Positions 18,170 through 56,696 of a stretch of 64,000 bases of DNA are shown here, piece by piece. Position 1 is the first letter of the stretch. Every line of letters begins with the position of its first letter. The notes beneath the pieces were generated by a model. That model was not told the origin of the DNA and did no database searches. It saw only the letters and a program-made list of their open reading frames with translations. The DNA comes from Mesotaenium endlicherianum (lineage: Eukaryota). A program made the position numbers and the translations under genes. Where the stretch lies: positions 728,233 through 792,232 of the forward strand of contig WELA01003305.1 in the NCBI GenBank assembly GCA_009602735.1, given 5' to 3'.

Positions 18170-18529
18170 GCCGCCACCCAAGTATTCTCAGAATCTGGAT
18201 ATCCTTTTCACTTGATCAAATATTGCTGTTGTCTCCTAAAATTTATCATAGCCAATATGTCTTCCACTTCATATTCCAAATGATCATCCACTACTGTTGG
18301 GGCTGGTGGGGTCGTCACTCGTCCTGCGAACTTTGTTGTCCAGTTGCACATATGGCTTGGAGAGGGAAGCGTGGAATACGGGATCAATGTACATAGTTTG
18401 GGGAAGTTCTAGCTTGAAAGCAACGGAGTTGACTTGCTGGATAATCTTGAAAGGTCCCAAATACTTGGGAGAGAAATTGCTGCCGGCAGGCCTGTTGTCC
18501 AAGAAAATGCTCTTGGATGATAGTAACAC
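18170..18529 (-). pseudogene. Element A integrase C-terminus (GPY/F) and chromodomain remnant
   Basis: VLLSSKSIFL..PKYLGPFKIIQQVNSVAFKLELP..IDPVFHASL, then EYEVEDILA and QQYLIK*KGYPDSENTW in shifted frames. Confidence 0.85.
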
Positions 18530-19393
18530 TGTCATGCTTGGTGCCGTCGAGAGTCTCCTGCGTGTCTGTCCCGTTGATCTGGGGTGGTGGATGTTGACAG
18601 GCTAGGGTGGTAGGTGAGGATGACTTAGGTCACAAACGACTACAGCAAACATTTGGACCTATGACCCGCTCACAAGGTTCTGCTGTTGAGCAGTTGTGAG
18701 GTTCCGCCCGAATCCCGCGTATTTCCTTCTACCTTCACACGTGGTCCGGCCGCTCACACATGTGGAGGTCGACCCACGAGTTCCCTCCCTCGTTGGGTCG
18801 GCGCTGGTACCAAGTGGGAGCTTTAGTTGCCCGTGGCCTAAGTCATCATGTATGATAGGCAGCCCCTCTGGATATGCCCACGGGGTTGCTAGGGATTAGG
18901 GAGAGTATGGGAGTGCACATGGGGTTGGGGTGTCGTCTCGTCGTACTACGTCGTCCTTTTTTAATTAGCTCTTTTTATATATTAGGTCTAATGTTTTTGG
19001 TCTTGTTGATATGACGCGATAACACGTCACTCAAGTAGGTACCGACACGACTGAGTTTCACTTTCGGCACTGGGCTAGAGGTTTGTGGATATGCTATTTA
19101 GGTCGCGAGGCAACACTCATAGAGTGTTCGCATTTGTATGTCGCTTGATGCTTCTACACCATTTTTTCTCTCTTGCTCTTGTCTACGTTTATCCATCGCT
19201 ATTGTACTTGTTTGTTACCTCACACATCGTAGTAAGGTACAAGTCTATACACGCTACGGATCAGCTAGCATAGAGTCTCGTGGAGCTGTAGCCCGCCATA
19301 ACATCGTTAGCCTAGTCAATAGACACTTCCCAAAACTGGCTCGTCCGTGCATTGTAGTCCTAGCTCGGCCGCCCAAGCTCTTAGCTCTTTACA
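18530..19393 (+). repeat. Repeat A1 of element B (LTR-like, TGTCATG..CTTTACA)
   Basis: Aligns by eye over its whole length with 45131-46002. Confidence 0.9.
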
Positions 19394-20167
19394 TACAAAT
19401 GCTAACCTTCTTATGAGTCTAAGAGGGTTAGACATTAGGCGCGAACTGACGGCTCGTTGTCACACCTACTCTCAGTAATGTCCGAGGTAGTTTCTATTTC
19501 CTCGCACCGTACAGATTAGTGTAGGTTATCTTAGGCCACTTGTTCCACCAAAGGGACTTCTTTGGTTTGCCAGGTTTGTGCCTGTGGCTGGAGTGCATGC
19601 TGCTGACTCCCGGACGCACACGGAGCGATCGGTCCTACCAGCAACAGACTTTAGCTGAGTGTCCCTCTCCATTGTCCGTCCCTATCGATATAGTGAATTG
19701 TTGAAGTTTTCTTCGTCTAAGACCAGTGCCTATTACAGATTCCGATTTGTCAGACCTCTCTCACTATACCGCTTGCGGTTAGCAACCTGACCCGTCCAAC
19801 TTTCAATTGCCTACTTTCCCGCCGTTATGGACAACTGATGAGGGTAGTCTGGGGGTAGGGGGAGGTGACGAATACCATCACATAGATTGGACAATGGAGA
19901 TGGCTGGATCTTCTACTTCTGCTACTTCCTACCAGACCTATACCAGGCATTTGGATGGCTTGTCTTTGCCTGCGTTGTCTTTTAAAATCGACGCGTTCGT
20001 AGCCATCTTGCGTGCGCGTAACCACCGGCTTACTCGTAACGACTATTTCCACTCTTTGCCTACACACTTGGGGGGGGAAGCTCTGTTGCTCTATCAGCGC
20101 TTTCGCGTTGATATCATTCAGACCATCCCTAATGTGCCTCCTGATGTTCCTGAGGCGGGTGGGGTAG

Positions 20168-21084
20168 TGTAACGATTCGAGCTATTTTAGGCGTATTTGG
20201 GACGTTTTCCCAATTACCTAAAGTACGTTATACTATTTATCATATTATTTCATAAATGATTGCATCATATTCAATTATTCGCCACACGCGTGTGTCGATT
20301 AATTCCTGGTCGATTTGCGAAACAACCGAGACACTATTGCAAAAAGCGTCGTAACGTAACTCGACTACTTCGCAAAAGTACGACATAATTATTCATAAAG
20401 TTACTTTGATTAATTATGAGATGATAACTTAATAAATCACTGATTGATTGAGTTAATTTGATTGTCATTATTTCGGATAATGCACAGTCACAGATTTCGC
20501 ATTTACAATCGTTAATACGAAGAAACAGTCGTAAAAGTCAAACGACACATAATATGCAAAGCGACTTTGCATCCGAGCGGATTCAAACCTGCGACCTGTC
20601 GTTTGAAACGTTCACGCCTAACCAATTGGCGAAGTAGTTTTCATAACTACCGGTTCATGACGAAAGCACGTGTGCGCGACTTCGCGAATAGTCGCAACTT
20701 TTCAAACAGTCGCGTGAACGCGAATACGCCCATTTGGCGTGAAACGGTTTTTCGAAAACCGTTGAAAAGTCTCCAAACGGCCAAACGACGCGTTTCGAGC
20801 ATTCGGCCCAATGGGTCGTACCCCTTCGTTTGTTTACGTTGAACATGAACCAATGCCCTAGGTGGTGACTCAAAGCACTCCAATGCCTCACGTTGTGCAA
20901 GTATAAATACTTGCAAGAGTCATTGTGAGTGCAACTCTCACAAGCACACATGCTACGTTAGCTTTTATTTTCGCTTTCTCGACGATTTGTCAATTTGCAC
21001 AAGTATATAGATTTTCTTTCCACTTCATTAAAATCTTCCCTGAATACCAAGGAAAAGATCCTCTCAAAAAGCACAAACGTTACA
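20168..21084. mobile_element. Solo LTR, family F, copy 1 (917 bp)
   Basis: TGTAACG..CGTTACA ends; perfect 5-bp TSD GGTAG at 20163-20167 and 21085-21089; homologous to 23862-24853. Confidence 0.9.
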
Positions 21085-23861
21085 GGTAGTTCCTAATCCC
21101 ATATTAGACGCCCCCCTAGGGGGGGGCCAATTGATCCACCTGCGGCTGCTGTGGCTGCAGGTTTGGATCCTGCAGCTCCTAGTTTTAAAATTTGGCCGTA
21201 TAGGCCTCAAAGGGCTTATTGTACGTATTGTGGTACGTCGTATTATCGTACAGCAAAAAACGCGTATAAACAGATAGTTGATTATCGTTTTTTTTCATTT
21301 TGTGCACGGTTTATTTACCTCACTTATTTTCGTTTGTAATAAGTCTCCACGTCGGCTCCTCGACGCATACCATTGGACCACGCTGTCACATTACCTCACG
21401 GACATAGATTACACTCGTACTTGAAATTACCGGAAGGTGAATGTCCACAAACATTTTGGCCCTTGAACCAACCTTCACAAAAATAGAAGCACCGCCTCCA
21501 TGCTCATGATGCGCCGCTCATGTAGCAGGCATCTTGGGAAGGAACTGCAACTCTGTAATCTCCTTTGTTCTTCGCAGATGCCCATCTTAGCACAGATATT
21601 AGTGGGTGACAAGAGCACCCTTGCTACGACACAAGGTACCAGCACTCCTAAATATTATACTTATGGCATTCATTCATGTTCCGTATATGGTTTTTTGCAG
21701 CCGTGCATTGTACCTTCAAAAGCCGAATAGGGTCACGGGAATCATGGGACAAGCGCGGATCGTATTCATTATGTGGATTCTCTATAGTTGTTGTTTGCTT
21801 TGTTACACACAGAACCACTATCACTGCTTTGGGTTTTGCTTACGTTATTTGCTTCAAAGCTCTCATCCTGCCTACGTTTCTATATGTTAAGCCTCTTTCG
21901 CACCCCTGTAATGATTGTCTCAAAGTGGTACAAACTGTTGTGGCTCCAGGTACAACTTCTGTAACGATAAGTAAATGGAGGAGGTGCACAATTTCGGGGA
22001 CGAGTTCTTCGAGAATGTTGATAAGAAACATTTACATGAGGTGAGCCTCATTACTCATGGACTACGAATGTGTCCAAACCAGGACCTCATTCTACCTTTC
22101 CCTTTAAGGTCCCTCACAGATTTCTCTTGTATAAATTTGTTGCCGCTTGACGCATAAACGACACTCTGTAATTTACGACACTGCACTCATCCGCGCTCTC
22201 AGCACTTGCAGGTTTTCACTGCCATGGACGGGAGGAAGTTGGCAATGACAGCTGCATGCAGAGATTCACAAGTTTCGTGCAAAAAGGTGGGTGAGTAAGA
22301 CTAGGTGTCTCTTCACGCGATGCCATGTGTACTTTGCGCCACCCATACATTCCATGTAAGCATGTAATGAACCTACTAAAGAGAGATGCATGTAGATTTT
22401 GTGGCACCTGTTAGAATTGTGCCTTTTCTCACTAGGTATACATTGTGCATCCCTACACCCTAATGTGAATGTGGAACCTTCCTCAACACATGCATAGGCT
22501 ATATGTACTTGGCCTGCCCGCCTTGTGTACGTCACTGGCCAGATTTTTGTATACATTGCGTCTGCCACTTACCTTGTCTCTAAGTGGCAAAAATGAAACT
22601 TGACTGCTGAGATTGACTTGATAGTTAAGACTCCAATTTTATCCTATAGTATACTAAACTGATAGAGCCGCATTCTCATTAGCTTATCTCTCCTCAACCA
22701 CTAAATGAATCCTAATGCCAGAAAATTTTACTTGCCTATAGGCTGCTTACATGTGTACTTCTTACATAGTGTTCTCATCTTTTACTTCTATCCTCTGCTT
22801 GAAGGGTGGGTGGGTCAACTAAACACTGTATTAGTGCGCTTGCATGATTTGTGCTACTCTGCACTACTGTTAATTACTTGCTGGGACTTACTGCACGGAG
22901 GCTGCTACAACTTTGAAAATTTGAATTAGTGCAATATGTGAACGTTGCGCCTGCCACTTACCTTGTCCTTAAGTGGCAAAAATGCCCACCTTGTACACCT
23001 TTTCACCTATTCCCTGCCAACCTCATGTGCCTCTTGGCAATAATACAATGGTAACCTCGTTCATTTGCATGAAATGCAGCGACACCTATTCGCAGCTTGT
23101 AGCCTCTATGACTATGCGCCGTTTGTCACTCGAGGTGGCAATGTGTAAAGGGTCCGTGGCTATTGTGTTGTCTCTCACTGTAACACACGTGGTGGTTTAC
23201 TCTTTGACGGAGCAGCCTGTTATATTATCCAATTTTTACCTCAGGTTCAAGCATGCCATTATGTCACCTGACCCACACTTTTGTTTTTCGGTTGTGCATA
23301 CACATCCATAGAGTGTGTTTTTAGAAGTAAATTAAAGTTATACCTCTTCATGATCACCGTCACGTTGCTGGTCTATACACTGCCCTGCTTTGCCATACTA
23401 TCATGCTTTACTATTGTTTGTAGGCTGTGAGGGGGTATGTGGACAGCCTTGGGGAGAGCGGTGGTCAGTTGCTGTCACCTCCATTGGTGCACGTATTGTT
23501 GCACAAGTGGCTAGAAGACACTTGTGAGGCCCGCGAGCAAGCCCCAATGGCACAATATGACCTCAGATTATCGCCATAGCATTACAAGTAGCTCATTTCA
23601 TTCCTTTCGTTATGTCATGAGTACTAGCACCTTACCAGGCTTCGCAGTTCTTCAATCATAGGTTAATATTCATATGTATGGATTAATTATCATCATTGTT
23701 TTATATTCATTTTCCATCATTGTTTTGTACAAAGCTCACTTGTTATCATCCGTGTGCTTCATTTACATAAAATGCATCACTACCGGTACGAGTGTGTTGT
23801 AGCATGCTGTTGTATGAGGGCATGGAGACTTGCAGTTAAACATGTGTTGCATCTTAGCAAC

Positions 23862-24853
23862 TGTAACGATCTGAGCTTTTTAGGCGTATTTAGAACGTTT
23901 TTCTAATTACCTGAAGGACGTTATACTTCTAGTTTGTATAAGATTGCATGTTTATTGAACTATTTTGACACACACGTGTGCCGACTAGTTCCCGGTCGAT
24001 TGGCGAAACGACCCGAATGCTACTGCAAAAGGAATCGTGAAGTAATTCGATTACTTCGCAAAAGTATAACGTAATTAATCATGAAGTAGTTTAATTAATT
24101 ATGGCGGAATATCTTAATTAATTATGGATTGATTAACTTATTTTGACTATCACTATTTCGGATATTAACAGTCATTGTTTTTGGTTATCGATGCGTCGCT
24201 AACCCAAAAGAAAACACCAAGTTGTGGCCCAAGGGAGCCACCGGTCGAAATCGAACCCGCGACCTCCCGGTCGTCGCGTCGCGATTCCGAAAATAGTCGT
24301 AAAGTCAAACGAAATATAATATGCAAAGTTACTTTGCATTTTGGCGGATTCAACCCGCGAACTTTCGTTTAAATTGTTCACACCTAACCGATTGGCCAAA
24401 GTAGTTATTATAACTACCGATTCATGTTGAATTAATGTGTACGCGACTGCGCAAACAATTGCGACTTTTTAGAAAGTCGCGCGAACGCGAAAACGCCCGT
24501 TTGGCGTATAATGGTTTTCCGGAAACCGTCGAAAAGTCTCCTAAAGGCCAAACGGCGCGCTAGGAGCATTCGGCCGAATTGGTTATGTCCAATTCAACCG
24601 TATCTCGTTGAACATGAATCAGTGCCCTAGGTGGTGACTCGAAGCACTCCAGTGCCTCACGTTGTGCAAGTATATATACTTGCAAGAGTCATTGTGAGTG
24701 CAACTCTCACAAGCACACATTCTACGTTAGTTTTCATTTTCGCTTTCTCGAGAATTTGTCAATTTGCACAAGTATATAGATTTTCTTTCCACTTCAATTA
24801 AATATTCCTTGAATACCGAGGAAAAGATCCTCTCAAAAAGCAGAAACGTCACA
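23862..24853. mobile_element. Solo LTR, family F, copy 2 (992 bp), nested in the hAT
   Basis: TGTAACG..CGTCACA ends; flanks GCAAC and TCAAC (4/5 TSD match); homologous to 20168-21084 with a longer internal segment. Confidence 0.85.
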
Positions 24854-25489
24854 TCAACACATTGCTACTTTACTACTTTGCATTTTCAAAATAGTGGTCG
24901 CAAACAGAGTTTCAGCACTCCAGCATACACAACTTAGAGTCACACGCTTAATTTGCGTACTCTCGCAACACGTAAATATACCTTTAAGCACACCACAGGT
25001 AAGCGTCGCAATGGTAATGACTGTGAAGTAGCTATGGTACTCATCTAAAGATGTTGGACTTTATATCTCCTGGTACACTAGGAGGTGAGCAACATACAAT
25101 CTGCATGCCTTCTCAAGTTATAAATAAATCGCTTCAATGAAGATAGAGTGTACCACTTCAAATTCAATAGCACAAGGAAAGGAAAAGTGCTAAGCAGCAC
25201 TTGAAATTTCATAGCAAAGAAACCATGAGGCATTGAATACAATTATAAACAACTATGGCAGCACTTAACGTGAAAACAGAAGTACAGTACAATGGAACAT
25301 ACCAGAGAAGGTCAAAGACAATGTCCCCAAACAATATTCAAGAAAGTAAATAGCAGCAGCAGCTCCAAAGCAGGCAAAAAATGAGCAAGAGCAGTAGGCA
25401 TACATGAGAAGCAGTACTGACAGTAGCCATAGTTTGTTTGATACTACACATAAGGGATCGTAGGTTGGACAAGGAAGACGTATTGGGTG

Positions 25490-26850
25490 TCTTACCCGCA
25501 TTCTTGCAAGCCTTAGCAGAGTCGGTGCATATCATGAGGACATGCTCCGTATCGATCTCTTGTAGGACCTCCTCGAAGCATTGAGCTATGAATTTTCCAC
25601 TCTTGAATTTGCCACCGCAGTTTATTGCCTTCACCATCTTCTCTCCCATCGTTGTCACAACGATGAAGTTGATAATGGGTCGCTTGGTAATGTCAGACCT
25701 GGCACCACAAAAAAAAGAAAATTGTATTATTGTACAAGAAGAGAGTACGAAAATGAAGACGAGCAATTTTATGAGTATAAAATGAAGACAACACAAAGAT
25801 AAACAAATTAGCAGGAATAAGTGCAAAATCAGAGACAAATTACCATTTATAAAGTGTGAGCAAAGAGAAATGGGAAGAGTAGCAATGACTTCCTGCAAAT
25901 ACAACAAGTAGGTGCAGCAATTAAAATAGCAATAGAAACATAATCAGAATTCACAGGCGATTGGAGTTACTCAAGGACAGCAGCAATTGCAGCAATGCCC
26001 GCCTACAATGAAGAACAAGTCAATGTATAGATAGCAGGGACATATTAGAACACAACAACAGCCAACAACGGAACTGGCAGAATCATGAATAATCCACAGT
26101 TGAAGTCAAAAGCCTACAGGTCAAAATGTAATGTGGTGCAGCTACACATAAAGCACTTGAAGGAAGCGGGTGAGAAGTGATGCAAAATGACTTATCAGTC
26201 ATCTAAGCAAAGTACACATCATGTGACTTTGAGCTTCTCCATAAAGCGGCGAAGCTCAACATCACATCTAGCTACTTCTCGGTCTAGCAGCTTAGTCCTT
26301 AGGTGATGGCTGTGATTACCAACGTAGTTTGGTCCAGCATGGGTGATACAGTTAATCATGAGATCGTAAGAGACACAATTGGCAGTATTGAAACTAATCC
26401 CATTAGCATAAAACCACTTAGCAATGGCTTGATCAGCTTGATCACGGAAACCCGGCTTCCAAACCTCGAGAAGTTCTGACTTCCTAGCCGAGACCTGGCA
26501 GAACCTCCAGAGGAAGAGGAAGGACACAGATTACCACTCTTCTTCATCCTTGCTTCCATTGCCAAGACCTCCATAGTGCGCTCATGATGAGCACGCTTCT
26601 GCTTCATTCTTTGTTCAGCAAGAGGGACCTTGTAGAATCTTAATCTGTCAGCATCATTGCAGTGTGCAGCAAAAATGCTTGGACATTGGTTGGAACTTTA
26701 GGACAGCTCGTAATCCCTTGCCCTTGAACGCAAGCCAAGTGGTACCTAATCCTATGCGCACCACCTAAGTTCTTACATTTGCAGTACTTACAGTGATTCT
26801 CAAAAGATCCAGGGGACTCGGCCTTTTCTACTTTGTTAACATGGTCATGC
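25490..26850 (-). pseudogene. hAT transposase remnant (BED zinc finger plus DUF659-type region), intron-containing
   Basis: HCKYCKCKNLGGAHRIRYHLA at about 26735-26800; ADQAIAKWFYANGISFNTAN..HLRTKLLDRE at 26219-26527; SDITKRPIINFIV..KSGKFIAQCFEEVLQEIDTEHVLMICTDSAKACKNAGK at about 25490-25700. The C-terminal half was not recognised. Confidence 0.85.
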
Positions 26851-28363
26851 TCTGAAGTGCAAATGTCATCGGCCTTACCCTTGCCTCGGTTAGCAGATGT
26901 GAGCCTGGAAGAGCTGCCAGGTCAAAGAAACTCACACTCAAGCTTTTCATCAGTATGTGAAGAAGGAGACTCCTCACAATTCGTTTCTGCCATGATTGGT
27001 GAGGTGGAACTAGTAAGGAAGATAGGTGAATACGATTAAGTGCTATTGTAGCAGTAGGAATTGAGACGGACACAAGTCTCGGTTGCCATGACTTACCAGC
27101 TTCTTCTGACATGAGTGGAACGCAAGGCCATCTATGTTGTGGGTAAGCCTTGTGTCGGATTTTCATTGGGCACGAAGAAGATAAGCATGTTGAATACGTA
27201 CGTAATTGGTGTGTACAAGAAGAACACACAAACCAGACACCCATGAACTTGAAAATCAAATAGCATAGCTAGAGCGGGAAAGCAAAGATGGTGCCCAAAA
27301 ACACCAGTTGCTTTCTCGCTGTGTTCATTCATTTTCGTGTGTTCAAACAAGGTCGGAGCCGGCAAAGACGAGTTATGAAGTGACGGAATGAAGATAAGAA
27401 GTCAATCAGCAGGTTGCCACGAGACACAGCCGGCACTTTGCATCCGTGTGTCGCAGTGAGTCAGCAAATTTAGGCGCAAGATGTAAAAATTTAATAATTA
27501 CAACAAACGTGACAGAAGTGGACGGTGCCGCGTGCTTGAACTCTGACAACCGTTTTAAATGATCGACAGCGGCGTATTTGGCCAATTTCTGGCGTACTAT
27601 TTTCAACTTCACGTATCGTGCGTATCGACTGTACGCCCAAACGTGTGAACCGTATCCGAATTTTAAACTAGGCTGCAGCTGCTGCAGCCGCTGTGGCTGC
27701 TGTTGGTCAGGGCGTGGGTGCCCAAGGTCAAGAAGGTCTACCTGGGGTCGGAATTGGTAGGGAGTTGGCGTTAGTTGGGGGGGTTGCAGGCGAACCTAAA
27801 CCGCCAGGTCTAACAGAGCTGGCGTTGCCCGTATACGCCACTCAAGTTAAAGTGGTTGCTGCTTGCATCGAGGACCGTCACACTCGCGCAGTTCAGACCG
27901 CCAGCAGCAGGCGGTGTTACGGAATAATTCTTCCCCTTTATGGCCCAGCTCCTGGTGCAGTGTTGGATTGCATCGATGCCCTCTTTTAGATGTTTTGCCA
28001 GCGTTTCCCTGCTAATTCTTGTGCTCGTCAAGACGAGTTACGTGACTTCGTGCGGCTTCCTAAGTAGACTTCTAACATGGTCTACGAACAATGCATGTAG
28101 TTGCGTGAAGATACCGGCATGTATGATGATGTGACCTCGGCTTGCATTAAATTCATTAGTGCATTTTCTGCATCCTCGGCATTATGTGCCACTCTTAATC
28201 ACCAGCTGGCATTGACTAAGGAGCACAAATGCAGTATTTACAACGTGTGTTTGTGAGCTGAGCAGATCAAAGTAGTGCAGGCGGCATGAAATGAATCGAC
28301 TTACCAATTAGGCGAGCAGCTTTACTTGGAGAGCTACTTACTGAGCTGGACTCAGGTCCAGCA

Positions 28364-32645: not shown

Positions 32646-33805
32646 TTCTGTCTGCTGCTAAGACAGGTACCTCCTCAACCCGAAGAAATGGTGGAGAAAA
32701 AGGTAAGCCCTCCGGAGCACCGTACTGCTGCGAAAATTGTTGCTCAGTACACGAATGTATTTAATATGCCTCCAGGACTACCCCCTAAGAGGGAAGTAGA
32801 TCATAGGATTGATTTATTACCTGAGAGTCAGCCACCCTGGCAACGTACTTATAGCTTGTCTTATGTGGAGAGCGAGGAGTTGAAAACACAGATTGCAGAG
32901 CTTGAGGAAAATGGTTATACTTCTCCAAGTAAATCACCTTACGGCGCACCCATCCTATTTGTTAAGAAAAAGGATGGCAGTATGCGGATGTGTGTGGATT
33001 ACAGAGCCCTGAACAAAATTACAATAAAGAACAAGTATGCCTTACCCAGAATCGAGGACTTGCTTGATACCCTGTCTGGTGCTAAGGTGTTCAGTAAGAT
33101 AGATCTCAAGAGTGGTTATCATCAAATCAGAATTGCTGAGGCGGATGAACACAAGACTGCCTTCCGCACACGTTATGGACACCATGAGTTCAACGTGATG
33201 CCATTTGGACTGACTAATGCTCCTGCGACCTTCATGGGTGCTATGAATGACATTTTCAGACCTTATTTGGATAAGTTTGTGCAAGTTTTCCTGGATGATA
33301 TTTTAATTTTCTCTAAAGATGAAGCTCAGCACGCTGAACACTTGAACACAGTCATGGACACTCTGAGAAAAAAATAACTTATATGCTAAAATGAGCAAGT
33401 GTGATTTCTTTGAAGAAAGTATTGAATTCTTAGGCCACGTTGTCAGTAAAGAAGGCATCAGTGTGGATCCTAAGAAAGTCCAGACCATAAGGGACTGGCC
33501 AGTGCCACAGTCTGTCTCTGAAGTTAGATCCTTCCTCGGGTTGGCTAACTACTATAGGAGATTTATTGAGAATTATTCTACAAAGGCCAGTAAGATGACT
33601 GACCTTACTAAGAAAGACATAGGGTATATTTGGGGGGGAAGAGCAGCAGGCTGCCTTCCAGACACTTAAAGTTGCTCTTTGTTCTGCCCCAATGCTAGCC
33701 GTGTATGACCCCAGCAAACCGGTGCAGGTGGTCATTGATGCCTCTAACTTTGCCATGGGTGCTATTTTGTTGCAGCCTGCTGACAAAACCACAAAGGATG
33801 GTAAG

Positions 33806-34306
33806 TGTAGTGAAACAAATAGATAAAGTACTTAGTAAAACAGAATACTTTATCTATTCAAGACAAGGATCTTTGAACACAAGTGGTAGCTTCTTGAAAG
33901 AGAGATGGCTTCTTGAAAGTTAATATATTTCTGGATTTTGGCAAGTACAAGAGTGATTCTCCAATGTCTTTCTATGTTCTAGCTCTTGTTTATATACTTG
34001 CTACATAAGTAATTTCTAGGAAGGTGTATGTTGATGTGTTGGCACCCAACACATCCCAAAACTTGCCACCTCTTTCTAGAATAATGTACACATGTCCTTT
34101 TGACCTAAAAATGGCACATCTTACTTTTGCCACATGGAGTTCTTCTAGGTCTTTCCTCTAACTTCGAAAATGCCTTGGAAGGTTCAAAGGACATGAACCA
34201 AGTTACTAGAGTACCTATTCACACTTGAATCCACACAATACTACTCCAAATATATTTGAAGACATTAAAATATATGCATACTAATATATAATAACTCAAA
34301 TCACTA
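33806..34306 (-). mobile_element. Solo LTR of family A inserted in the RNase H region of D2
   Basis: Homologous to 16739-17235 and absent from copy D1. The last bases and right TSD appear lost in a deletion of about 10 bp with TA microhomology. Confidence 0.88.
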
Positions 34307-36999
34307 TAGCAGGAGTGGCATCCTGTGTTGTATGAGTCTATGAAATTTAATCCAGCGGAGATTAATTACTCAGTGCATGATAACGAGTTGCTAGCTATCA
34401 TTCATGTGCTCAAACAGTGGAGAGCATACTTACATGGTAAAGCTTTTAAGGTGATTACAGATCATCTAGCTCTGACTCACTTTCAGAAAAAGTCCAAGCT
34501 GTCGAGGAGGGAGAACCGCTGGAGCCAGATGCTGGAGCAGTTCCAAGTCCAGATCGACTACAAACCAGGGAAGTTGAATCCTGCTGATGCACTCTCTAGA
34601 AGACCTGACTTGCAAGAAAGGAACTTTAGTCAGCATGCTGTAGATAAAGTCCTGTGTGCACTCACTTCACTAAAGGTGAAAAAGTCCTTCCTTGAACAAT
34701 TTAGGAAAGCCTACCTTTCTGACCCAACATTTGAGCCCAGCCCCACTACCGGTATGTGTCGTGCCACTGCACTCGGGTATAAGCTTAAGGGAGGGGTCTG
34801 GGTGACTGAAACCACTTCAGGCAGGCTGAAGCTGGTCATTCCTAACAACTTGGAAATAAGGTCCTTTTTATTGAGTCAAGTACATGACAGTTTACTGGGT
34901 GGGCATTTGGGGCAGGCCAAAACTGTTGGCAAACTAGCAAAACATTATCATTGGGAGGGATTACCCCAAGAGGTCTTGAAATACGTTAAGTACTATGACC
35001 AGTGTCAAAAGAATAAGTCTTGGCACACACCACCGGGGGACCTCTTACAACCGCTGCCCATCCCAGCTGACCGCTAAGAAACAATATCCATGGACTGGGT
35101 GGTCACACTGCCACGAACTGCCAATGGGCATGATTCGATACTGGTTGTTGTGGATAAACTGACAAAAATGGTCATTTTTATCCCCACAACTGTCAAGGTA
35201 TTTGCACTCGAAACAGCGAGACAGTTCTACAACCATGTAGTATGCCAACATGGACTACCCTCTAATGTAATCTCAGACAGAGACTCGAAATTTACCTCTA
35301 AGTTCTGGAGGGCTTAAGTGGGGTTAATGGGAGTCAAACAGCTGCTCAGCACAGCAAACCACCCTCAGACTGATGGGCAAACTAAGAGAACTAACCATGT
35401 TTCTGCAAGAGGTACTGAGAGCCTATATTAACCAAAAACAAGATAATTGAGATGACCTGTTACCTCAAATCCAGTTTGCGGTCAACAGTGCGGTGCACGC
35501 GTCAACGGGCAAGACTCCTTTTGAACTAAGCCTGGGTAGAGTCCCTAAGTCTCTTTTAGATGTCCTAGGGGAGTCTTTAACTCACCCTCAAGTGATTGAC
35601 AATCTGGTCTCCCTCCAGTTAACTCAGGAGTTATCTGACACCCTGTCAGAAGTCCAACAGAACCTGCACAGAGCCCAAGAAAACCAACAAAAGTATGCTA
35701 ATCAGCACCGTCGAGAACTGACCTTTTCTTAAGGCCTTTTGGTCTAACTGCATTCTCAACACCAATACCTCCCTGGTGTGGTCAAGAAAAGCTCGGCCCT
35801 GTCTAGGTCGGTCCATATTTGGTGGTGCGTTGTATCGGTCAGAATGCTTACAAACTGAACATGTCAGCCGAATCTAAGGGTCATCTGATCTCTAATGTCT
35901 CCTTCCTGGAACACTACATCAAAGGTGATACACTGTTGCCATGTCGGTTACCTGTCCAACCGGGACCGGTCCCCGCTGTCCGAGACGGCAACCCTGAGGA
36001 ATATGAGGTTGAGGAGATTTTAGACGCGCGCTCGGTCCGTTGATCGTCAAAATCTGTCATGAAGTACCTCATTTGATGGAAGGGTTACGATGCCTCTGGG
36101 GACACTTGGGAATTTAAAGACCATTTGACTAATGCCAAAGGGGCGTTGAAACGGTTCCACCTTCGGGCGGCTGGAGCACCTCCCTTACAGTCATTTCAGT
36201 TGACACGGGAAGGTGACAGGAGGTCCTTTCTCGATTTAAGTTGGAGGGGAAAATATGACAGTTAGTATGCGAGAGCGAGAAAGGGACAGTTATGTGAACC
36301 CTAAGAGTCTGCATAGTGACAGAGGGGACAGCCTGGCCCACATGAAGCACCTTTAGCTGAAGGAAAAAGGAAAACACATTCATACGTTTATGTCTAGCAC
36401 ATTGCAATCACGTCAACTCCTAGGAATCACCTTGTAAGGTAAACGAGAACGAATATACCATATTAATACGAACTTATTCCCTGCCTGCAACTTCTAGGAC
36501 AAAGGCCGATATCCTACTAACTTGTGCCCTGGCTACATGTGCAGAATGGCTCCCACCACACAAAAGGAGGACTGAAAGCGCAAGGCAGAAGAAGCCAGGA
36601 GGACAATGGAGCAATACCAAAAGGAGCTGGCGGCGATGTCCCTCACCAAGAGAGAACAAGAAAGGGTTCGCAAACAACAAGAGGCGGCAGAAGAAGCACA
36701 GAGGAAAATGGGTCAGGAAGCGGAAATTCTCAGGAAAGCTGAGGAGGAGAGACAGAAGAAACAACAAGAAGAAGCGGCAGCGGCAGAGGAGGAGAGAAGG
36801 AAAAAGGCTGAAGCGGACAGGCAGAAGAGCTTGGCCACTTACAGGTATACTGTGGTGGGTGGTGTCGTGCGTTCCGAGGTCGAGTACGCACCATAGGCAT
36901 AAACCACACATTACAGGCAAGCAAGCTTTGCTGCAATGGAGTCTATAATACATGTTGCGTTACAGCCAAAAAGGGAGTCAAGTCAAAAATGTTTTAATT

Positions 37000-38501
37000 G
37001 CACCTCAAGACTGTAATCTGGAAGGAAAACAACTAATGAAGTATGGCCCAAAAGATCACTGGAAGCACATCATGATCTTCAGAGTAGTCCTATGGCAAGG
37101 GTTTAAGCTGTGACTTTGCTCACCAGGTTTAGGCCCTGGCTGTGCGCAGCCGTGCTCGGACCGTCGACACCGCGATCAATCATCCGGCCGCGTGGCGCAG
37201 TCGGGATAGCCCCCCCCTGACTGAGGGTGGCTGCTCCGACCGCCAGATCTGTGCTGGCCAAGCCGGGCCATGCGCGCGCGCCAAGTGGCGGCACGTGCGC
37301 GGCAGGGGCTGAGCCCTGGATGTGCGCAGCTGCGGGTGCGCTGTCGGCGCTTTTGCCGGCAACCCGGCCGCATAGCGCAGTCAGGACCCCCCCTGCTGAC
37401 CGAGGGTGGCGGCCGCTGCGGCCGTCGCTGCGCTGGCCGTGCNNNNNNNNNNNNNNNNNNNNNNNNNNNNNNNNNNNNNNNNNNNNNNNNNNNNNNNNNN
37501 NNNNNNNNNNNNNNNNNNNNNNNNNNNNNNNNNNNNNNNNNNNNNNNNNNNNNNNNNNNNNNNNNNNNNNNNNNNNNNNNNNNNNNNNNNNNNNNNNNNN
37601 NNNNNNNNNNNNNNNNNNNNNNNNNNNNNNNNNNNNNNNNNNNNNNNNNNNNNNNNNNNNNNNNNNNNNNNNNNNNNNNNNNNNNNNNNNNNNNNNNNNN
37701 NNNNNNNNNNNNNNNNNNNNNNNNNNNNNNNNNNNNNNNNNNNNNNNNNNNNNNNNNNNNNNNNNNNNNNNNNNNNNNNNNNNNNNNNNNNNNNNNNNNN
37801 NNNNNNNNNNNNNNNNNNNNNNNNNNNNNNNNNNNNNNNNNNNNNNNNNNNNNNNNNNNNNNNNNNNNNNNNNNNNNNNNNNNNNNNNNNNNNNNNNNNN
37901 NNNNNNNNNNNNNNNNNNNNNNNNNNNNNNNNNNNNNNNNNNNNNNNNNNNNNNNNNNNNNNNNNNNNNNNNNNNNNNNNNNNNNNNNNNNNNNNNNNNN
38001 NNNNNNNNNNNNNNNNNNNNNNNNNNNNNNNNNNNNNNNNNNNNNNNNNNNNNNNNNGCACCTCAAGACTGTAATCTGGTAGGAAAACAACTAATGAAGT
38101 ATGGCCCAAAAGATCACTGGAAGCACATCATGATCTTCAGAGTAGTCCTATGGCAAGGGTTTAAGCTGTGACTTTGCTCACCAGGTTTAGGCCCTGGCTG
38201 TGCGCAGCCGTGCTCGGACCGTCGACACCGCGATCAATCATCCGGCCGCGTGGCGCAGTCGGGATAGCCCCCCCCTGACTGAGGGTGGCTGCTCCGACCG
38301 CCAGATCTGTGCTGGCCAAGCCGGGCCATGCGCGCGCGCCAAGTGGCGGCACGTGCGCGGCAGGGGCTGAGCCCTGGATGTGCGCAGCTGCGGGTGCGCT
38401 GTCGGCGCTTTTGCCGGCAACCCGGCCGCATAGCGCAGTCAGGACCCCCCCCTGCTGACCGAGGGTGGCGGCCGCTGCGGCCGTCGCTGCGCTGGCCGTG
38501 C
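37000..38501. other. Assembly gap (N 37443-38057) flanked by a near-identical 443-bp duplication
   Basis: 37000-37442 recurs at 38058-38501 with one substitution and one homopolymer length difference seen. This is typical of unmerged overlapping contig ends. Confidence 0.8.
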
Positions 38502-39956
38502 GAGACTGCGCGCACGCGCCACTTGGCAACGCGTGGGTGTAGCTGCTGTGTGCAGCTGCAGCTGCCGCTGTGACGACGTCGTGGCGTCGCCGGGTGCGCC
38601 GTGGACCTGGCAGCGCAATGCGCTAGGCGCGCGTGTGATCTCCGCGTTGGCCTCCGCGTTGGCCTCCGCGTTGGCCTCCACGAGGGCGTCGCTGATGTCG
38701 TCAAAGCTGCAGTAGTCGGCTCCAGGAATCAATGCGGCGTTCGTCGTGGCCGTAGCTGCTGTCATCGCGGGGCGGCCACCCGTACGAGGGTTGTGTGCGC
38801 CTCGCTGTCCTGCTGAAGGCGTAGGGCCGTCGCGAGCGCGTCCATTCTCGACGTCGCGCTTCTTCTGCAGATAGACGATCTGCAGGTGACCGGCCTTGCC
38901 ACAATAGGTGCAGTCGCCGGGCTTGCCATTCTGCGCGAGAGTGCAGTTCTGGCGTGAGTGGCCCGTCTTCCCGCAGGACCAGCAGGGATCGCTCGTAGTG
39001 GCAGCCATGGAAATGCGGCCACGCGTAGCTCCGCGCTGCTGTGTCTGCTGGGGCAGCTGAGAGCGCTGAGGCTGCTGCTACTGCGATTGGGGCTGGCGGG
39101 CAGGCGTCGTGCGCGTCATAGAAGACGGCAGCGCTGAGGCCTCCTGGCGCACGCCCGTGGATGCTAAGCCCACACGATCGCTAATGTTGCTCCTTGCGGC
39201 GGCCAAGCTCTGCTTCTCAACGGAGAGGTAGGCCTGCTCCAGAGAATACTCTGAACCGTGGCGGTCGATGAGGGGGACTACGGCCCTCTCCCTCAGACGC
39301 GGCTCGACGGCGCGCAAGAAGATCTCCGCGGCCTCTCGGTTAGTGACAGTGCCGACATCGCGGCGGAGGTGCACCAAGCGGCGGTACATCATGCGGATAG
39401 TCTCGTTCTTGCGTCGGAAGAAATGGTGCAGTTCGTACACCTTCTCTTCAGTTGCAGCCTGGAACTCTGTCTCCAGGATGTTCCAGAAGGCTTGCACTGG
39501 ATCAGCTAGCAGGGTCGCCACTGGTGGGTCACCCACAAGCTCAGTGCGGGTGCGGAGCTCGGCCTCCTTCTCACGGAAGGTGTCGCGGGCCTCGTGCGAG
39601 AGGTAGCGCAGAAGCGTATCGAAGACGTCGCGCTTAGTCAGCGTGGGTGTCTTGAGCTTTGCAGCCGCGAAGTCAGCCTGAAACTCCGAGATGGTATCTT
39701 CCAGATCACAGGTGCCTGGCCTACCGCTGAAGCGGTAGGCAGACCTGTCAGTCCTGACCTCGTGGTCACCTGCCATGGGATACCAGAAATCGTAGTGAGC
39801 CCACTGGGGAGATGGCTCAGAAGCAACTGCTGTGTGCTGGAGAGCTGGTTGCTCTTCTTCGGCAGGTTCAGTGATAGTGCTGATATCTGAGTCTGAGTCT
39901 TCCCCACTAATCCCTTCGTAGTATGGTTGATAAGAGAGCCCACTACAAGTAGGCAT
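38439..39956 (-). pseudogene. gag of element E with two zinc knuckles
   Basis: ORFs 39956-39078 and 39008-38439 are in frame across one TAG in a Gln-rich linker. Knuckles CWSCGKTGHSRQNC and CTYCGKAGHLQIVY (last Cys altered). Confidence 0.8.
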
Positions 39957-42482
39957 ACGCTGAAGGTTCTAATTGCTTGCAGGCAAAGAGAGATCTTTTA
40001 GAAGTAAGGGAAGTGTACTCTCCAGAGTGAGCACCTCTATACTGTAATCTGGTAGGAAAACAACTAATGAAGTATGGCCCAAAAGATCATTGGAAGCACA
40101 TCATGATCTTCAGAGTAGTCCTATGGCAAGGGTTTAAGCTGTGACTTTGCACACCACTTGTGAAGTTCTTCAAGTGACTGGAAGCCTGGAGGGCTTGCTG
40201 TTCACAAGAGAGTAACTAAGTGGTCCTGAAAACACAAGAGATAAAAGTGTGTGCTTTACTGATAATCTCTGTTACTTACACCTGGCATAATGGACTTCTA
40301 AAAGATGTCTCTTCTAGGGACATCTCTAGTACTTATACTCTTGGAAATCCGGCGGGGTATGCGGCGGATCCAATGCATGTAGTCACTCTAGGAGGCTCTC
40401 CTATGTCCACTAATGTGTACAAGGCATGTACTAGCACTCCTATAGGCTAAGCATAACTCAAACCAATCAAAGCAAGGTGCGTAGGATATGCTACGTGTCC
40501 CTCATTGGCCGAGCTTACCTTGGGTGATTCTACCTAGATAGCGCCTCAAAAGTGGATCTGGAAATTGAGGAAGCTTCCTCTAGGAGTAGGTGATGCAGTC
40601 ACCAAGTATTAGCCTCAATGATGCACATATACTATGGAAATGCAAAGCTTATGTAGGCTAAGGGGCTCGCGGATTTGTGCGCACAAAGCATGGGGTCACG
40701 AAGAGCCAACAATGTCACCTTTGGGGACATTGAGTCACAAAGTGGGCCTTGGGAAAGTTCCGCTAGGGACCGGTAGGTGACGCGGACTAGATTGCCCCTA
40801 TCTCGCTCGATACTTGATCGAATGACGCGAAATTGGTGTCATTCGGAAGATGCTTCGACGCTCTACACGTTGGTGACTTGGAAGTCTAGAAAAGGTCAAC
40901 ATACGGATGCGTAACGTCAATGTAAAGTCGGCCTTCCTAGGTTGATGTTCCGCACATGTGGAGCTTGGTTTTTATACGACAACCTCGACTCAATAAATCA
41001 TGACAGTGGCCAAAACTTTGATAACCTGAAGGAAGCATTGCTGGCAGCCCAGGAGATCAACAAGGTGGAACAGACAACACTGCTACAGAGGGAAGGAGCT
41101 GCAGCACTGGATAGGTACATTGAGACACACACTGGTGTGGTCCTTCACGAAGATTATGCCAAGATGGTGGGCTATACAGCAGAGCAGGCCCGGTACCTTG
41201 CAGATGATTCAGAGGACAAGCCGGTCCCAATATCGGGAACAGTGGGAGATCAGAGACTCATCAGGATGGTGAGCATGCGGCCCGATAGCTTTAAGGATAC
41301 GATATTCTACCTCACACTACTGCCAGCTTACAATGAAGTTGAGAGAAGGAGCTGGGAGTACTTGGCCAGGGAGGCAGGACAGCAGATGTTCTCTCCCCAC
41401 TGGTTCCCATGTAAACTGAGAAAGGTTGAGCATGGACCCCAGTACTACCAGCAGCCAACAGACTGGAGGTGGATGACCGTCACAAACAAAAAGCAAGAGT
41501 GTGACCGAGCCAAACCAGACGATTTCCACTATGGCCTAGACGGCTACCTCATCCTACAACCTCACATTGCCCCTTGGGACCCCAGGCTGAACGGCTTCCT
41601 GAGCAATGTGAATGCAGAGACCAAAGAGCACAGGAGGAGGGGGAGGGACTACTTCTTTAAGGGAAAGTATGCCTTCGTCAAATGGGCAAAGAATGCAAGT
41701 CGGATAGATATCAGCAGGCTGAAGGCCAAGCAACCCCCAGCGCGCCCTAAGAAAGGGAGATCAATAAACTACTCCATGTCTACCAGAGAGCAGGACGACT
41801 TAGTTGACAAGACTCCTACTCTCTCAGAGGAGGAGGATGAGGGGGATGAGGAAGATGAACAAGGCAGAGGAGAAGCATCAAGAGTTGGTACTCAGGAGAT
41901 CCAGGGGCAGGCAGGAGCACTTCCTAAGGAACCAAGATCAGGTATATGGAACGTGATCCCCGTCATGGAGGCAACGGGACCCCGCACTCGCTCCCCCAGC
42001 CCACCTGCCCAAGCAGGGGAAGAAGCTGATCTGACTGTACTTGGCAGCAGACACAGGCAGAAATCCCCAGAGGACAAGGGTTCCAGAAGAGGACCACGCA
42101 GGGTGGCCAGAGGTATGCCGGCTTCCCCCTTCGCTCAGGGACATGTACCTCTTGCCAATGTATTTCAGCATCCTACTGGAATGCCCATCTATGTGGGGAT
42201 CAACACCCAAGTGGGTGAAGAGCAGGTTACCATCCTTCGTTCTCCTCGAGGTCCAACTTTAGAACAAACGAGGTTCTTTAGACGGCCAGCTGACAGACCT
42301 AGAGGGCTGTCTAGATCTAGGTCCAGATCTCCGTCTCCTGATCCTGAAGCCCCAGGAACAACCCCCTAAGATAGCAGGCTGAAAAAGCAGTCAGTATGGG
42401 AGACTGGTCAGGTTCAGGTCCCTTAATTAAAACTTTTGCAGTTTAATGTTGTCGAGGCGACAACAAGTTAAGTTGGAGGGAT

Positions 42483-43205
42483 TGTAATGAATCAGTACAT
42501 TAGTAAATATAATATTCATTTAAATAAATAGTTATGTATGTTCAACCTACTGAACTCTAGTTGATAATCAGTCTGCTGGACTTTATATTTAATGTCAATT
42601 TAAGGACTCAGTCGGAAGCAGCAGGCTGAAGTCCACTTAAGTCAGCTTGCTGACACATTCTTTGACAGCCAGCTGACTTCCGTACTCGGTAGCAGCGAAC
42701 TGCCTCGATATGCATCTAGGTATGATATGCTAGATGAATGGCCAGATGACATCCCTATGATGGATGGCTATTCGGGATGATGGGAGATGGCGGTGGATTT
42801 GGTTAACCGAAGTCCTACCAACGTGGTTAACTCCCGGGTAGGCGATGCCATCGCACTGGCCGTTGAACAGTAAACTCATTTAATGTACATATGCTAGGCA
42901 TTGCTCTCGAGTTCGGCATTCGGAAACGAGGCCAACTCTCTTGTACAGCTTACTGAGAGAGAGATCTGAATCCAAGGCGAGAAGCCATTGATACGCACTG
43001 TCTTCTAACCTTGCTTATGTATGAGTTTACTGATTGCATTATTGATGCTAGTTTACTTGCATTTGACTTACGAGTATAGTTCACTGCTAGTGTGTTGTCC
43101 CTTTACCGTTTAACCAGTTAACGGAAAATACGATAAAGATTACTTGCTGATATAAAGATCTTTATTAATTGTAATCGCCTATTTGGTAAGTCGATTCATT
43201 TCACA
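42483..43205 (+). repeat. 3' LTR of element D
   Basis: TGTAATGAATC..GATTCATTTCACA imperfect terminal inverted repeat, preceded by a PPT. Element B integrase resumes immediately after. No second copy lies in the window. Confidence 0.75.
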
Positions 43206-44422
43206 AGCGTACCAGCAATCTTTTGCAAACCGAGTATTGGTGGGAGGGTCTGGTCCAACAAGTCATTGCTTTTGTTCGGACGTGCGAGTCATGTGATTGA
43301 TTTAAGAACATCTTCAACGATCTTCCGTCTGTGCTCAACCCTCTTCCCTTGCGTGGTCTGTTCTATAGATGGTCGCTTGATCTTGCCGGCCCCCTGCCCG
43401 TCTCTAAGCGTGGTATGCATTACGTCTTCGTCATGATTGAGCACCTCACTAAGTGGATAGAACTGGTCAGCATCCCCGATAAGTCTAGCGCGTACATTGC
43501 TCGGTTCTTCACTGAGCGAGTTCTGTGTTGCTATGGCGCTTATGCTGAGGTCCTTACTGATTGTGGTTCAGAGTTCCAAGGAGAGTTGAGTGAGCTGCTG
43601 GATCAATCTTTCATAGACTGCCGTACGACTTCCCGCGACCACCCTCAGGCCGATGGACTTGCTGAGCGGATTGTCCAAATTGTTAAACGTAGCTTACGTA
43701 AGTATGCTCTCACTCACGATGTGTCCAAATGGGACGTTCACATTCCATGGTTGGCTATGGGATACAATTTTAGTAACCAGGCCTCTTTGCGCTCCTACTC
43801 TCCTTACTTCCTTCTCTACAGTCGTGAGCCCCTCTTGCCAGCTGCTATCCGTCGTCGCGTCACTGTCCCTTTGAGTCTTGCGGATCCCGATGTGCTTCTC
43901 TCTCATTTGAATGAACGTGCTTCTCTCTTTCTTGAGCACATGCCTATTGCCATGGGTAATTTGCTAACCGCTCAGCACCGTGATACCCTTCGTTATGCTC
44001 GCTTGCGGAGTGGGATCTATAAACCCCGTCTCGTTAAGTTTGAGGTCGGTGATTACGTCTACTTACAGCGAGAGATGCAAGACACATTAGACGTCTGTGT
44101 TGGTCCTCTTATCCTACTAGTTCACAACGTTAGTCCTAATGGCGTCCTCACTCTTATAGGTTCTGACGGTCGTACTATACGTGAGAACATGAACAGCTGT
44201 GCACCTTGTCACCTACCTAATATTCGTAACGAAGTCAACTCTTTACAGGCAACTGCACCTGCCAACCATCCTTGTCGTGGGTGTGGGTCTTCCCGCCGTC
44301 TTGCATCTAAGCTGTTGTGCAATGCTTGCAACTCCGGCTGGCATCTTGCTTGCCTCACTCCTCGTCTAACTCGCGTTCCTGCCGGAGGCTGGTTCTATTT
44401 TTCGTGCAGACCGCCTCCTTAG
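43206..44422 (+). pseudogene. Integrase of element B with a C-terminal PHD finger
   Basis: HHCC remnant YWWEGL..FVRTCESCD; core WSLDLAGPLP..VLTDCGSEF..HPQADGLAERIVQ (D,D,E); FEVGDYVYL; PHD-like CRGC..LLCNACNSGWHLACLTPRLTRVPAGGWFYFSC (one Cys replaced by Tyr). Confidence 0.9.
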
Positions 44423-44870
44423 CGTAGGACCCTCTCATTGCGTTTTCTTTCCTTTCTCGTCGCTCCGCGCTATTTGTTTATACGCTGGCTCCCTTGCTGT
44501 TGCAGGTCCCCCTCCCCTTTCGTAGTGGGAACAGTCCCTGCTCGCCAATTCACGGAGTCTCCCACCCCCGACGCTAACGGCTTCTATCGCCGATATCCTG
44601 CGCGGGAGTTTCCCGGCGGACACGCGCATCCCCACCTAGTGGCCCGCTGCTAGCGGTCGCCAGTCGGCGATGTCGTCCCGTCTCTTCACCGTCACCAATT
44701 CCTACCCAGTTTTGATTTGTCACGTGTACCACCTGGAGTATGTTTACTCAGGGTTTTATTTCCTTGGGTCGCCCGAGGCTGTTCTCTCCTTTATCGTCCC
44801 CGACGATCGCATTTTAGAGCCTCCACGTTCAGCTGCGCTCTTGCCCCCACGTCCTCAGCTGGGGAGGGGG

Positions 44871-46246
44871 TTTCATAGCTCACTTTTTCCTTAGTTCTTT
44901 GCGGACTTAGCTGCCCCAGTAGTGCCCACTAATGCCCAGACTTCTAGTGTTGTTTTTCCTATTCACAGCTCATAAGCTGTGGGCTTTTTCTTCCACTAGG
45001 GGAGGTTTTTACCCACCAGCACGTAGGTTAGTTAGCTCTTGCATACCCCAGGGGTATGGTCCCTTGGAGGTTTCGTCCTTCCCTGCTCTGCCAATGTCTA
45101 GTGTCCTCCGACAGTCTCAATCACGAGAGCTGTCATGCTTGGTGCCGTCGAGTCTCTTGCGTGTCTGGTCCCGTTGATCTGGGGTGGTGGGTGTTGACAA
45201 GCTAGTGATTAGTTGGATTAGGGTGGTAGGTGAGGATGACTTAGTACACAAACGACTGCAGCAAACACTTAGACCTATGATCCGCTCACAAGGTTCTGCT
45301 GTTGAGCAGCTGTGAGGTTCCACCCGGATCCCGTGCATTTCCCTCATGCTTCACATGTGGTCCGACCGCACACACGTGTGAAAATCGACCCACGAGTTCC
45401 CTCGCTCGTTGGGTCGGCGCTGGTACCAAGTGGGAGCTATAGTTGCCCGTGGCCTAAGTCATCATGTACAATAGGCAGCCCCTCTAGATATACCCACGAG
45501 ATTGCTAGGAATTGGCAAGAGTATGGGCATGCACATGGGGTTGTGGTGTCGTCTCGTCGTACTACGTCGTCCTTTTTTAATTAGCTCTTTTTATTTATTA
45601 GTTCTAGTGTTTTTGATCTTGTTGGTGTGACGCGATAATGCGTCACCCAAGTAGGTACCGACACGATTGAGTTTCACATTTGGCACTGGGCTAGAGGTTT
45701 GTGGGTATGCTATTTAGGCCGCGAGCTAACACTCATAGAGTATTAGCATTTGTATATCGCTTGATGCTTCTACACCATTTTTATCTCTTGCTCTTGTCTA
45801 CGCTTCTCCATCGCAGTTTTTCTTGTTTTTTACCTCACACATTGTAGTAAGGTACTTCATACTTTATACACGCTACGGATCAGCTAGCATAGAGTCTCGT
45901 GGAGCTGAAGCCCGCCATAACATCGCTAGCCTAGTCAATAGACACTTCTCAGTACTCGCTTGTCCACGCATCGTAGTCCACCCAAACTCTTAGTTCTTTA
46001 CAGATGTCATAGCTCACTTTTTCCTTAGTTCTTTGCGGACTTAACTGCCCACTGGTGCCCGGACTTCTAGTGTTATTTTTCCTATTCACAGCTCATAAGC
46101 TGTAGGCTTTTCCTTCCACTAGGGCAGGGTTTTACCCACCAGCACGTAGGTTAGTCATGCATACCCCAGGGGTATGGTCCCTTGGGGATCCCATCCTTCC
46201 TTGCCCTGCCGATGTCTAGTGTCCTCCAACACTCTCAGTTGCGACA
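44871..46246 (+). repeat. Composite right end of element B: B1 (44871-45128), GC, A2 (45131-46002), GA, B2 (46005-46246)
   Basis: B1 and B2 align by eye (T[T/G]TCATAGCTCACTTTTTCCTTAG..GTGTCCTCC..CGA[G/C]A). A2 aligns with 18530-19393. Confidence 0.9.
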
Positions 46247-46250
46247 ACAC

Positions 46251-50513: not shown

Positions 50514-50514
50514 C

Positions 50515-56273: not shown

Positions 56274-56349
<76 letters not shown>

Positions 56350-56629: not shown

Positions 56630-56696
<67 letters not shown>

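Follow-up and report, generated by a model that had tools for sequence, protein, structure and literature searches.

We analysed a stretch of 64,000 nucleotides from Mesotaenium endlicherianum (contig WELA01003305.1, positions 728,233 to 792,232 of the forward strand; called the window here), which holds a retroelement with unusual ends. This A-B element, as we call the unit 18530-46246, lies inside a surrounding long terminal repeat (LTR) element, its host. Its left end is a repeat A, and its right end is a polypurine tract (PPT) followed by a repeat B, a second A and a second B. This A...B-A-B end design is real and lineage-wide. By its enzymes the design is Gypsy, yet in the copies and reading frames examined it has neither the paired LTRs of Ty3/Gypsy elements nor a recognisable recombinase of the DIRS/PAT kind. 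The A-B element is best explained as a dead copy of a Ty3/Gypsy lineage whose integrase carries a PHD finger, with the insertion order A...PPT-B-GC-A-B. As for the origin of this order, the signals in the sequence lead us to favour, at a probability of about 0.6, a route in which the cDNA ends would be joined and the integrase would then cut an internal palindrome and insert A...B-A-B.

Structure of the element and its relatives

The unit is a single insertion, flanked on both sides by the 4-bp target-site duplication (TSD) ACAC (18526-18529 and 46247-46250; these and all features of the ends lie on the + strand). Repeat A1 (18530-19395) begins with TGTCATG and would comprise promoter, R and U5. 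At the right end, the PPT (44861-44870) stands immediately 5' of repeat B1 (44871-45128), which is followed by the GC spacer (45129-45130) of an internal CA-GC-TG palindrome, the putative integrase site, whose B1 side has decayed to GA in the window. Repeat A2 (45131-46004) comes next, and repeat B2 (46005-46246) adjoins it and closes the unit with GCGACA. The right-end repeats were delimited by self-BLAST of the window and border inspection, the right TSD by border inspection. Self-BLAST aligned A1 with A2 at 86.7% over 886 columns (18529-19393 versus 45130-46002) and B1 with B2 at 85.4% (44873-45119 versus 46007-46237). On gap-free columns the A pair is 90.0% identical, the B pair 89.6% and the LTR pair of the host 90.3%. 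By these values the A and B pairs are similarly old, as they would be if each had been identical when a single insertion took place.

The host, which lies on the minus strand, is an LTR element of the ordinary kind and has a 5-bp TSD. The empty site of the A-B insertion was visible in contigs from this organism's runs, in one alignment on 44300-46600 in which three of the four runs represent one sample, contig depths are not copy numbers and run X5 (share 0.05) covers the host element only. Loose-end consensus rows of uninterrupted host copies contained a single ACAC, in GATAGTA-ACAC-GTTG, in runs X2, X3 and X5, and the corresponding row of run X1 differed by one letter. The C-terminal frame of the host integrase also runs on across the insertion site (VGNNV / LSSKSIFLDNRP..KYLGPF, the flanks being translated separately). 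A 5-bp TSD (AACAC) was ruled out, since the relatives described below terminate in ACA with 4-bp duplications. A reading of A and B as two separate small LTRs, both of which start with TGTCAT here, was ruled out because B of the relatives has no initial TG.

The surviving coding content of this copy consists of gag remnants and an integrase. The integrase (43205-44419, +) has a zinc-binding tail, a DDE core and a C-terminal PHD finger; the domain scan identified the rve core and the PHD finger, and the translation has D, D and E at D-35-E spacing. A remnant of the 5' gag region (19783-20167, +) has no significant database match. A gag core remnant (27681-28363, +) matches the gag of a nested relative weakly (E 4e-5), and its best four phmmer matches are the gag cores of the relatives L015, L012, L071 and L079 (E 0.02-1.3). 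The element's own reverse transcriptase (RT) and RNase H (RH) are gone through nested insertions and rearrangement. The RT and RNase H open reading frames (ORFs) at 31073-35074 were considered as the element's own and rejected, as they are part of a nested element of the chromodomain type that contains an inverted duplication; pol of the relatives is 35-47% identical to them versus 47-55% to 43205-44419, which alone in the window keeps to the integrase-PHD register of the relatives. No chromodomain match was found at the integrase C-terminus of the A-B element or its relatives, where the PHD finger stands instead. A search for a tyrosine recombinase gave no match among 49 ORFs of the window with 120 aa or more, or among 66 shorter ones (75-119 aa) from the unit. 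An earlier note, made from the letters of the window, had proposed a single insertion with TSD ACAC and a restored host frame, A1 on the left with PPT-B1-A2-B2 on the right, and a DDE integrase acting on TG..CA ends. All of this was borne out, the last part by the rve core, the D-35-E spacing and the termini TGTCATG..GCGACA between the ACAC copies.

To look at relatives, metagenome contigs were scanned; 257 of 454 candidates were confirmed and the best 80 of the 257 were examined. Nine A and B queries matched 42 of the 80, and after removal of 8 loci whose shared flanks marked them as repeats of the same insertion and of 5 loci with uninformative right ends at contig ends (L002, L003, L021, L061, L062), 29 distinct right ends were left. 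The PPT-B-A-B form accounts for twelve of these, among them one whose B2 is truncated where the contig stops and one that has lost part of A2. Another 15 are PPT-B with ACA as their exact terminus, and two are odd. Paired full LTRs, which the earlier note had named as the sign of a one-off rearrangement if present in other copies, occur at none of the 29. Both ends are visible in six relatives, four with A...B-A-B (L015, L035, L071, L079) and two with A...B (L012, L031). All six begin with TGTCATG and have no B in front. Their 4-bp TSDs are exact in four cases (GGTC, ATCA, TCAT, TACA) and have one mismatch in the other two (ATTA/ACTA, GCAT/ACAT). The Phygy target preference NCGN fits none of eight TSDs, namely these six (with ATTA and GCAT for the mismatched pairs), ACAC, and CCAC of a second element in the window. 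Copies of the shorter form are as common as the longer ones (15 versus 12), for example L012:2375-11347, L031:2752-11391 and 13 more loci. In L001, L009 and L072 the palindrome is present and the second B is not within the available contig; L072 continues for about 5 kb past the palindrome. L042, L059, L062 and L064 have the look of collapsed assemblies, in that either A leads back to a long ORF or the ends of the contig repeat.

The order of pol is protease (PR)-RT-RH-integrase (INT) in L002, L015, L042, L061 and L064, and the long ORFs of the relatives encode PR, methylase, RT, RH, INT and PHD. The relatives contain RT-RH-INT-PHD, and in 26 ORFs from relatives and window no match to a tyrosine recombinase family was found, which answers the scan that the earlier note had proposed. 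The integrase of the A-B element also matches RT-RH-INT-PHD polyproteins of chlorophytes, Klebsormidium, Closterium and liverworts. Some of these polyproteins include a C5 DNA methylase. In a tree of 47 rows picked by similarity plus two window outgroups, the integrases of the main relative families group with liverwort proteins. In the integrase tree, which is without named-clade references, the K. nitens protein P0162 stands at an open 46-row fork on a long branch, and the window row has no starred set. A scan of viral contigs gave 48 pattern matches and no confirmed relative. The methylase lies before RT in L002 (976-5082), L015 (6863-9403) and L071 (7005-7658), and between RH and INT, by weak matches, in L059 and L064. 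Judging from these five polyproteins, part of them weakly matched, Gypsy elements carrying Dnmt appear to extend beyond Klebsormidium.

Other copies in this organism agree with the relatives. In run X1, the sequence ahead of A is mixed in at least seven contigs (agreement 0.5), one of which may be A1. At least three joints of A running into B were present in the run contigs, one with an A end unlike both A1 and A2, and in one contig of 2.8 kb PPT-B leads into DNA other than A. Together with the six two-ended relatives, these copies uphold the expectation of independent insertions that start at A, end at B and have 4-bp TSDs.

Signals, junctions and a possible route to integration

The PPT adjoins B1 in the A-B element and in the relatives inspected. 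At the other end, a predicted self-priming site (19396-19406, +) adjoins A1. A 12-nt match that spans the A1 edge is the reverse complement of 19130-19141 in A1, and the complement in A lies about 30-35 nt after a TATA-like box (19095, +). Matches of this kind are clear in five of seven elements, with lengths of 12 nt in the A-B element, 15 nt in L015 and L035, and 11 nt in L071 and L079, each reached by none of 500 control segments. The PPT before B1 and the self-priming site after A1 predict a cDNA with B+A at both ends, so that reverse transcription likely makes an LTR that equals B+A. The earlier note's idea that the integrated form is a circular permutation of such an LTR is backed by these two signals. 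In the relatives the PPT-defined start of B has no TG, and the predicted ends of reverse transcription are without TG..CA. The missing TG suggests that the PPT-defined end is no attachment (att) site.

The two kinds of joint between A and B behaved differently. The B/A joint has the form CA-NN-TG with a 2-nt spacer at 13 of 13 loci (GC in 3, GT in 4, AC in 4 and AT in 2), all spacers being GC or transitions of GC. In a second set of 10 loci, some of them from the algal clade, the spacer was GC at 8. Insertions begin at the TG of the palindrome and end at its CA, the 2-nt spacer being lost. The A/B joint, where the predicted ends of reverse transcription meet, took five forms at 10 loci of one family: 3 were flush, 1 lacked 1 nt, 4 lacked 2 nt, 1 lacked about 7 nt and 1 had a long deletion. 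A fixed palindrome beside a variable A/B joint is the pattern expected from end joining followed by site-specific cutting.

The route that we favour would run as follows. The RNA would begin in A1 about 30 nt past the TATA-like box and end in A2; its 5' end would self-prime directly after A1, and the plus strand would start at the PPT before B1. The predicted product is a linear BA-internal-BA molecule whose termini would lack TG..CA. These two termini would be joined imprecisely into a 2-LTR circle, which would create the A/B joint. The DDE integrase would then cut the palindrome in staggered fashion, behind each CA, leaving recessed CA-3' ends with 2-nt 5' overhangs, which would be a normal integrase substrate. 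The A...PPT-B copies may be dead ends, arising from 1-LTR circles, from a double cut of linear DNA or from later recombination between B1 and B2.

Several observations weigh against this route or against the breadth of its support. Every mechanistic step is drawn from integrated copies, with no circle, cDNA or RNA observed. The circle would have two equal palindromes and predicts A-B-A...B copies as well; none was seen, the left end being visible among PPT-B copies in L012 and L031, both with a single A. The variants of the A/B joint could be inherited within subfamilies rather than freshly made. The self-priming match is weak in L012 (10 nt, reached by 7 of 500 controls) and absent in L031's own A1 (6 nt, 302 of 500), whose 12-nt site is complemented in A of its family-mate L023; in the nested second element (36863-41005) the signal was not found (best 7 nt). 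L046, in which B-A is followed by foreign DNA, and L019, in which B is shortened, fit neither class of ends. The 29 right ends do not amount to 29 independent tests, since one or two closely related families of bryophyte type supply most of them.

The PPT, the priming site and the variable A/B joints, with 0-2 nt of overlap, would equally be explained if no closed circle formed and RT jumped from the right terminus to the left, copying B onto the A end, after which the integrase would trim linear DNA at CA-GC-TG. Such a jump would account for the missing A-B-A...B form and is plausible where B measures 6-8 bp, as in the Gypsy-7/8/9_cRei families of Chlamydomonas reinhardtii treated below. However, the middle palindrome would have to be spared while the outer two are cut, and no such intermediate was seen; we consider this variant unlikely. 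Replication might instead resemble that of DIRS/PAT elements, with an RNA from inside A1 to inside B2, an inherited A/B joint and B1/A2 as template for the ends, only the integrating enzyme being different. The topology is indeed that of the A-coding-B-A-B DIRS-type elements shown in PMC5890265. Left unexplained are the conserved PPT exactly at B1, the priming site exactly at the A1 edge, the variable A/B joints, and the tRNA-type priming sites and 6-8 bp B of Gypsy-7/8/9_cRei; we regard this possibility as distinctly doubtful. 

It is very improbable that an ordinary LTR element was rearranged here in a one-off event or nested by chance, be it through a rare circle insertion, a recombination or solo LTRs of another family beside A2. 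The heavily rearranged interior of the A-B element would suit such an accident. Against it, the ends, the spacer and the 4-bp TSD recur in relatives, the nested second element again shows the ends of the lineage, A-to-B joints and mixed flanks before A occur in further copies from this genome, and the lack of paired full LTRs at the 29 informative ends contradicts it. Joining of the cDNA ends followed by cutting of the palindrome stays the reading that we prefer.

Nested interior and neighbouring features

The interior of the A-B element consists mostly of later arrivals, namely an inverted duplication plus five nested insertions. A nested solo LTR (20168-21084, strand unassigned) has TG..CA ends and TSD GGTAG, with a related copy at 23862-24853. 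It is followed by a hAT-like DNA transposon remnant (21178-27672, minus strand) with short terminal inverted repeats, the 8-bp TSD CTGCAGCT and a DUF659 domain at 25341-25943. A chromodomain-type Ty3/Gypsy element with RT, RH, INT and chromodomain (28364-43205, strand unassigned) has an inverted copy of its 3' half in place of its 5' half; its rearrangement took out PR/RT/RH of the A-B element, and it contains a host-family solo LTR and one further element. The arms of the inverted duplication (28364-41494, centre near 32614) are 91-96% alike, and the mirror arm lacks two later insertions, whose empty sites are preserved in it. A 484-aa extra ORF without Pfam match lies 3' of the chromodomain (40915-42369, +; mirror copy 28404-29285, -).

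The second, deleted element of the same lineage as the A-B element lies at 36863-41005 on the minus strand. It starts with TGTCATG, ends with CACGACA and has TSD CCAC, whose empty site is preserved in the mirror copy. Its gag has a zinc knuckle and is related to that of L012, L071 and L015 (E 1e-12 to 1e-14). Its right end comprises the last 126 bp of its A and 137 bp not in the left end, B1 and most of A2 being deleted.

Elsewhere in the window, the 5' LTR of the host has a 60-bp tandem duplication (50514-50738) that is present neither in its 3' LTR nor in the solo copy 33806-34306. Near-identical duplicates flank N gaps at 37000-38501 (444 bp, 99.5%) and 56004-56659 (about 300+ bp, 100%) and are probable assembly artefacts. 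Fragments of two genes of the host organism were found on the minus strand, one with a Spore_III_AA-type AAA domain (11262-11723, E 3e-9) and one with a weak ferric-reductase membrane match (14652-15284).

Comparison with known systems

The accepted precursor of LTR-retroelement integration is a linear cDNA with processed ends, LTR circles usually being seen as dead ends. In canonical Ty3/Gypsy elements the LTR pair is identical and the ends defined by RT are the ends used by the integrase, which is not so in the A-B element. Self-priming in Tf1/Tcn1-type elements follows an 11-nt rule. Canonical elements including the Tf1/Tcn1 type, for which the self-priming design is known from passages of PMC6317226, share with the A-B lineage the PR-RT-RH-INT order seen in its relatives, the PPT, self-priming and a 4-bp TSD. 

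IS3/IS911 elements form circle junctions. A precedent for the chemistry is the integrase of foamy virus, which Delelis et al. (2005, PMC1180852) report to cut a palindromic junction of two LTRs and so generate processed ends. The likeness to both is a DDE enzyme that cuts a palindromic end-to-end junction with a short spacer. The difference is that their junction arises on circularisation, whereas that of the A-B element is stored permanently in the repeat and a second joint would close the DNA.

Tyrosine-recombinase elements of the PAT/Ngaro/TOC1 type likely replicate through a circular intermediate. They share the A...B-A-B repeat order (topology in PMC5890265, Fig. 1e), but the A-B element differs from them in its DDE integrase, TG..CA ends, 4-bp TSD, PPT and priming site, with no tyrosine recombinase found in the ORFs scanned. 

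One of the closest known layouts is that of KnitGypsy-Dnmt3 from Klebsormidium nitens, in which repeats of the DIRS kind are stated to accompany Gypsy domains (de Mendoza et al. 2018, PMC5890265, Fig. 4c legend). It has the Gypsy domain set and A-coding-B-A-B repeats like the A-B element, and a C5 DNA methylase like the relatives L002, L015 and L071, a region lost in the A-B copy. The K. nitens protein P0162 is among the integrase matches and need not be KnitGypsy-Dnmt3 itself. The passages of PMC5890265 on KnitGypsy-Dnmt3 mention no TSD, palindrome, priming site or mechanism, and the supplement text contains neither 'KnitGypsy' nor 'TSD'. 

A second glimpse comes from Gypsy-7a_cRei of Chlamydomonas, where the last 8 bp of the right LTR are missing from the left one (Craig et al. 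2023, PMC9940879, Fig. 6A legend). The layout was thus noted in two figure legends and explained in neither passage. The earlier note's suggestion of a possibly undescribed group has to be toned down, the layout being already partly on record. Our literature search found no paper devoted to this layout; a prior description may exist in theses or subscription literature.

We compared Chlamydomonas families by eye in the repeat library of the PMC9940879 supplement, which has one LTR entry per family, so that left ends cannot be read from it. Among 31 internal entries of C. reinhardtii Gypsy families, 20 carry the signature, 17 of them ending in CA+GC and 3 beginning with GC+TG; 10 look canonical and 1 is unclear. 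The missing left-end B is documented in these sources for Gypsy-7a alone. In this family the 8 bp that close the LTR entry appear again between PPT and GC, that is A...PPT-B-GC-A-B with B of 8 bp. Gypsy-7a_cRei shares the PHD finger with the A-B element and differs in its placement, in integrase motifs and in a tRNA-type priming site; it is probably another lineage with the same end design. The PHD finger alone was set aside as ground for placing REM1 and Gypsy-7a in the A-B lineage, given the differing integrase motifs of Gypsy-7a. 

The internal entries of Gypsy-6, Gypsy-3 and Gypsy-N2a_cRei end with PPT, a copy of about 45-50 bp of the LTR end and GC, and Gypsy-5a_cRei is the mirror image. 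These four families are filed as ordinary Gypsy LTR plus internal entries, their B being about 50 bp versus 240-260 bp in the A-B element. The integrase motifs RGMFYRWGIDLAG and DHPQANGLAERMVQ of Gypsy-6_cRei are close to those of the A-B element, and the first 11 nt of its internal entry are complementary to its LTR. The CA-GC-TG design is also seen in the library with a short B of about 6-8 bp, in Gypsy-2/7/8/9/10/11/24_cRei. Families 7, 8, 9, 10b and 24 have tRNA-type priming sites there and apparently lie outside the A-B integrase lineage.

On roughly even odds, these elements form a widespread Gypsy group of the green lineage, with probably at least two lineages plus most Chlamydomonas Gypsy families, in which the att sites would have moved away from the cDNA ends to a CA-GC-TG junction that stands ready-made behind the PPT, B measuring anything from 6-8 to more than 250 bp. 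The cDNA ends would then have to join before integration, a natural and obligate form of circle-junction integration. If this is true, taking the ends from an internal palindrome would amount to natural junction integration by a retroviral-type integrase, and the layout would be a convergent path to that of DIRS/PAT elements without a tyrosine recombinase. Programs that seek paired LTRs with TG..CA and TSD likely miss such elements or set their bounds wrongly. Gypsy-7a_cRei is active, with 86 new insertions in one laboratory strain according to PMC9940879, and it appears to share the end design, so that the mechanism can be tested in Chlamydomonas.

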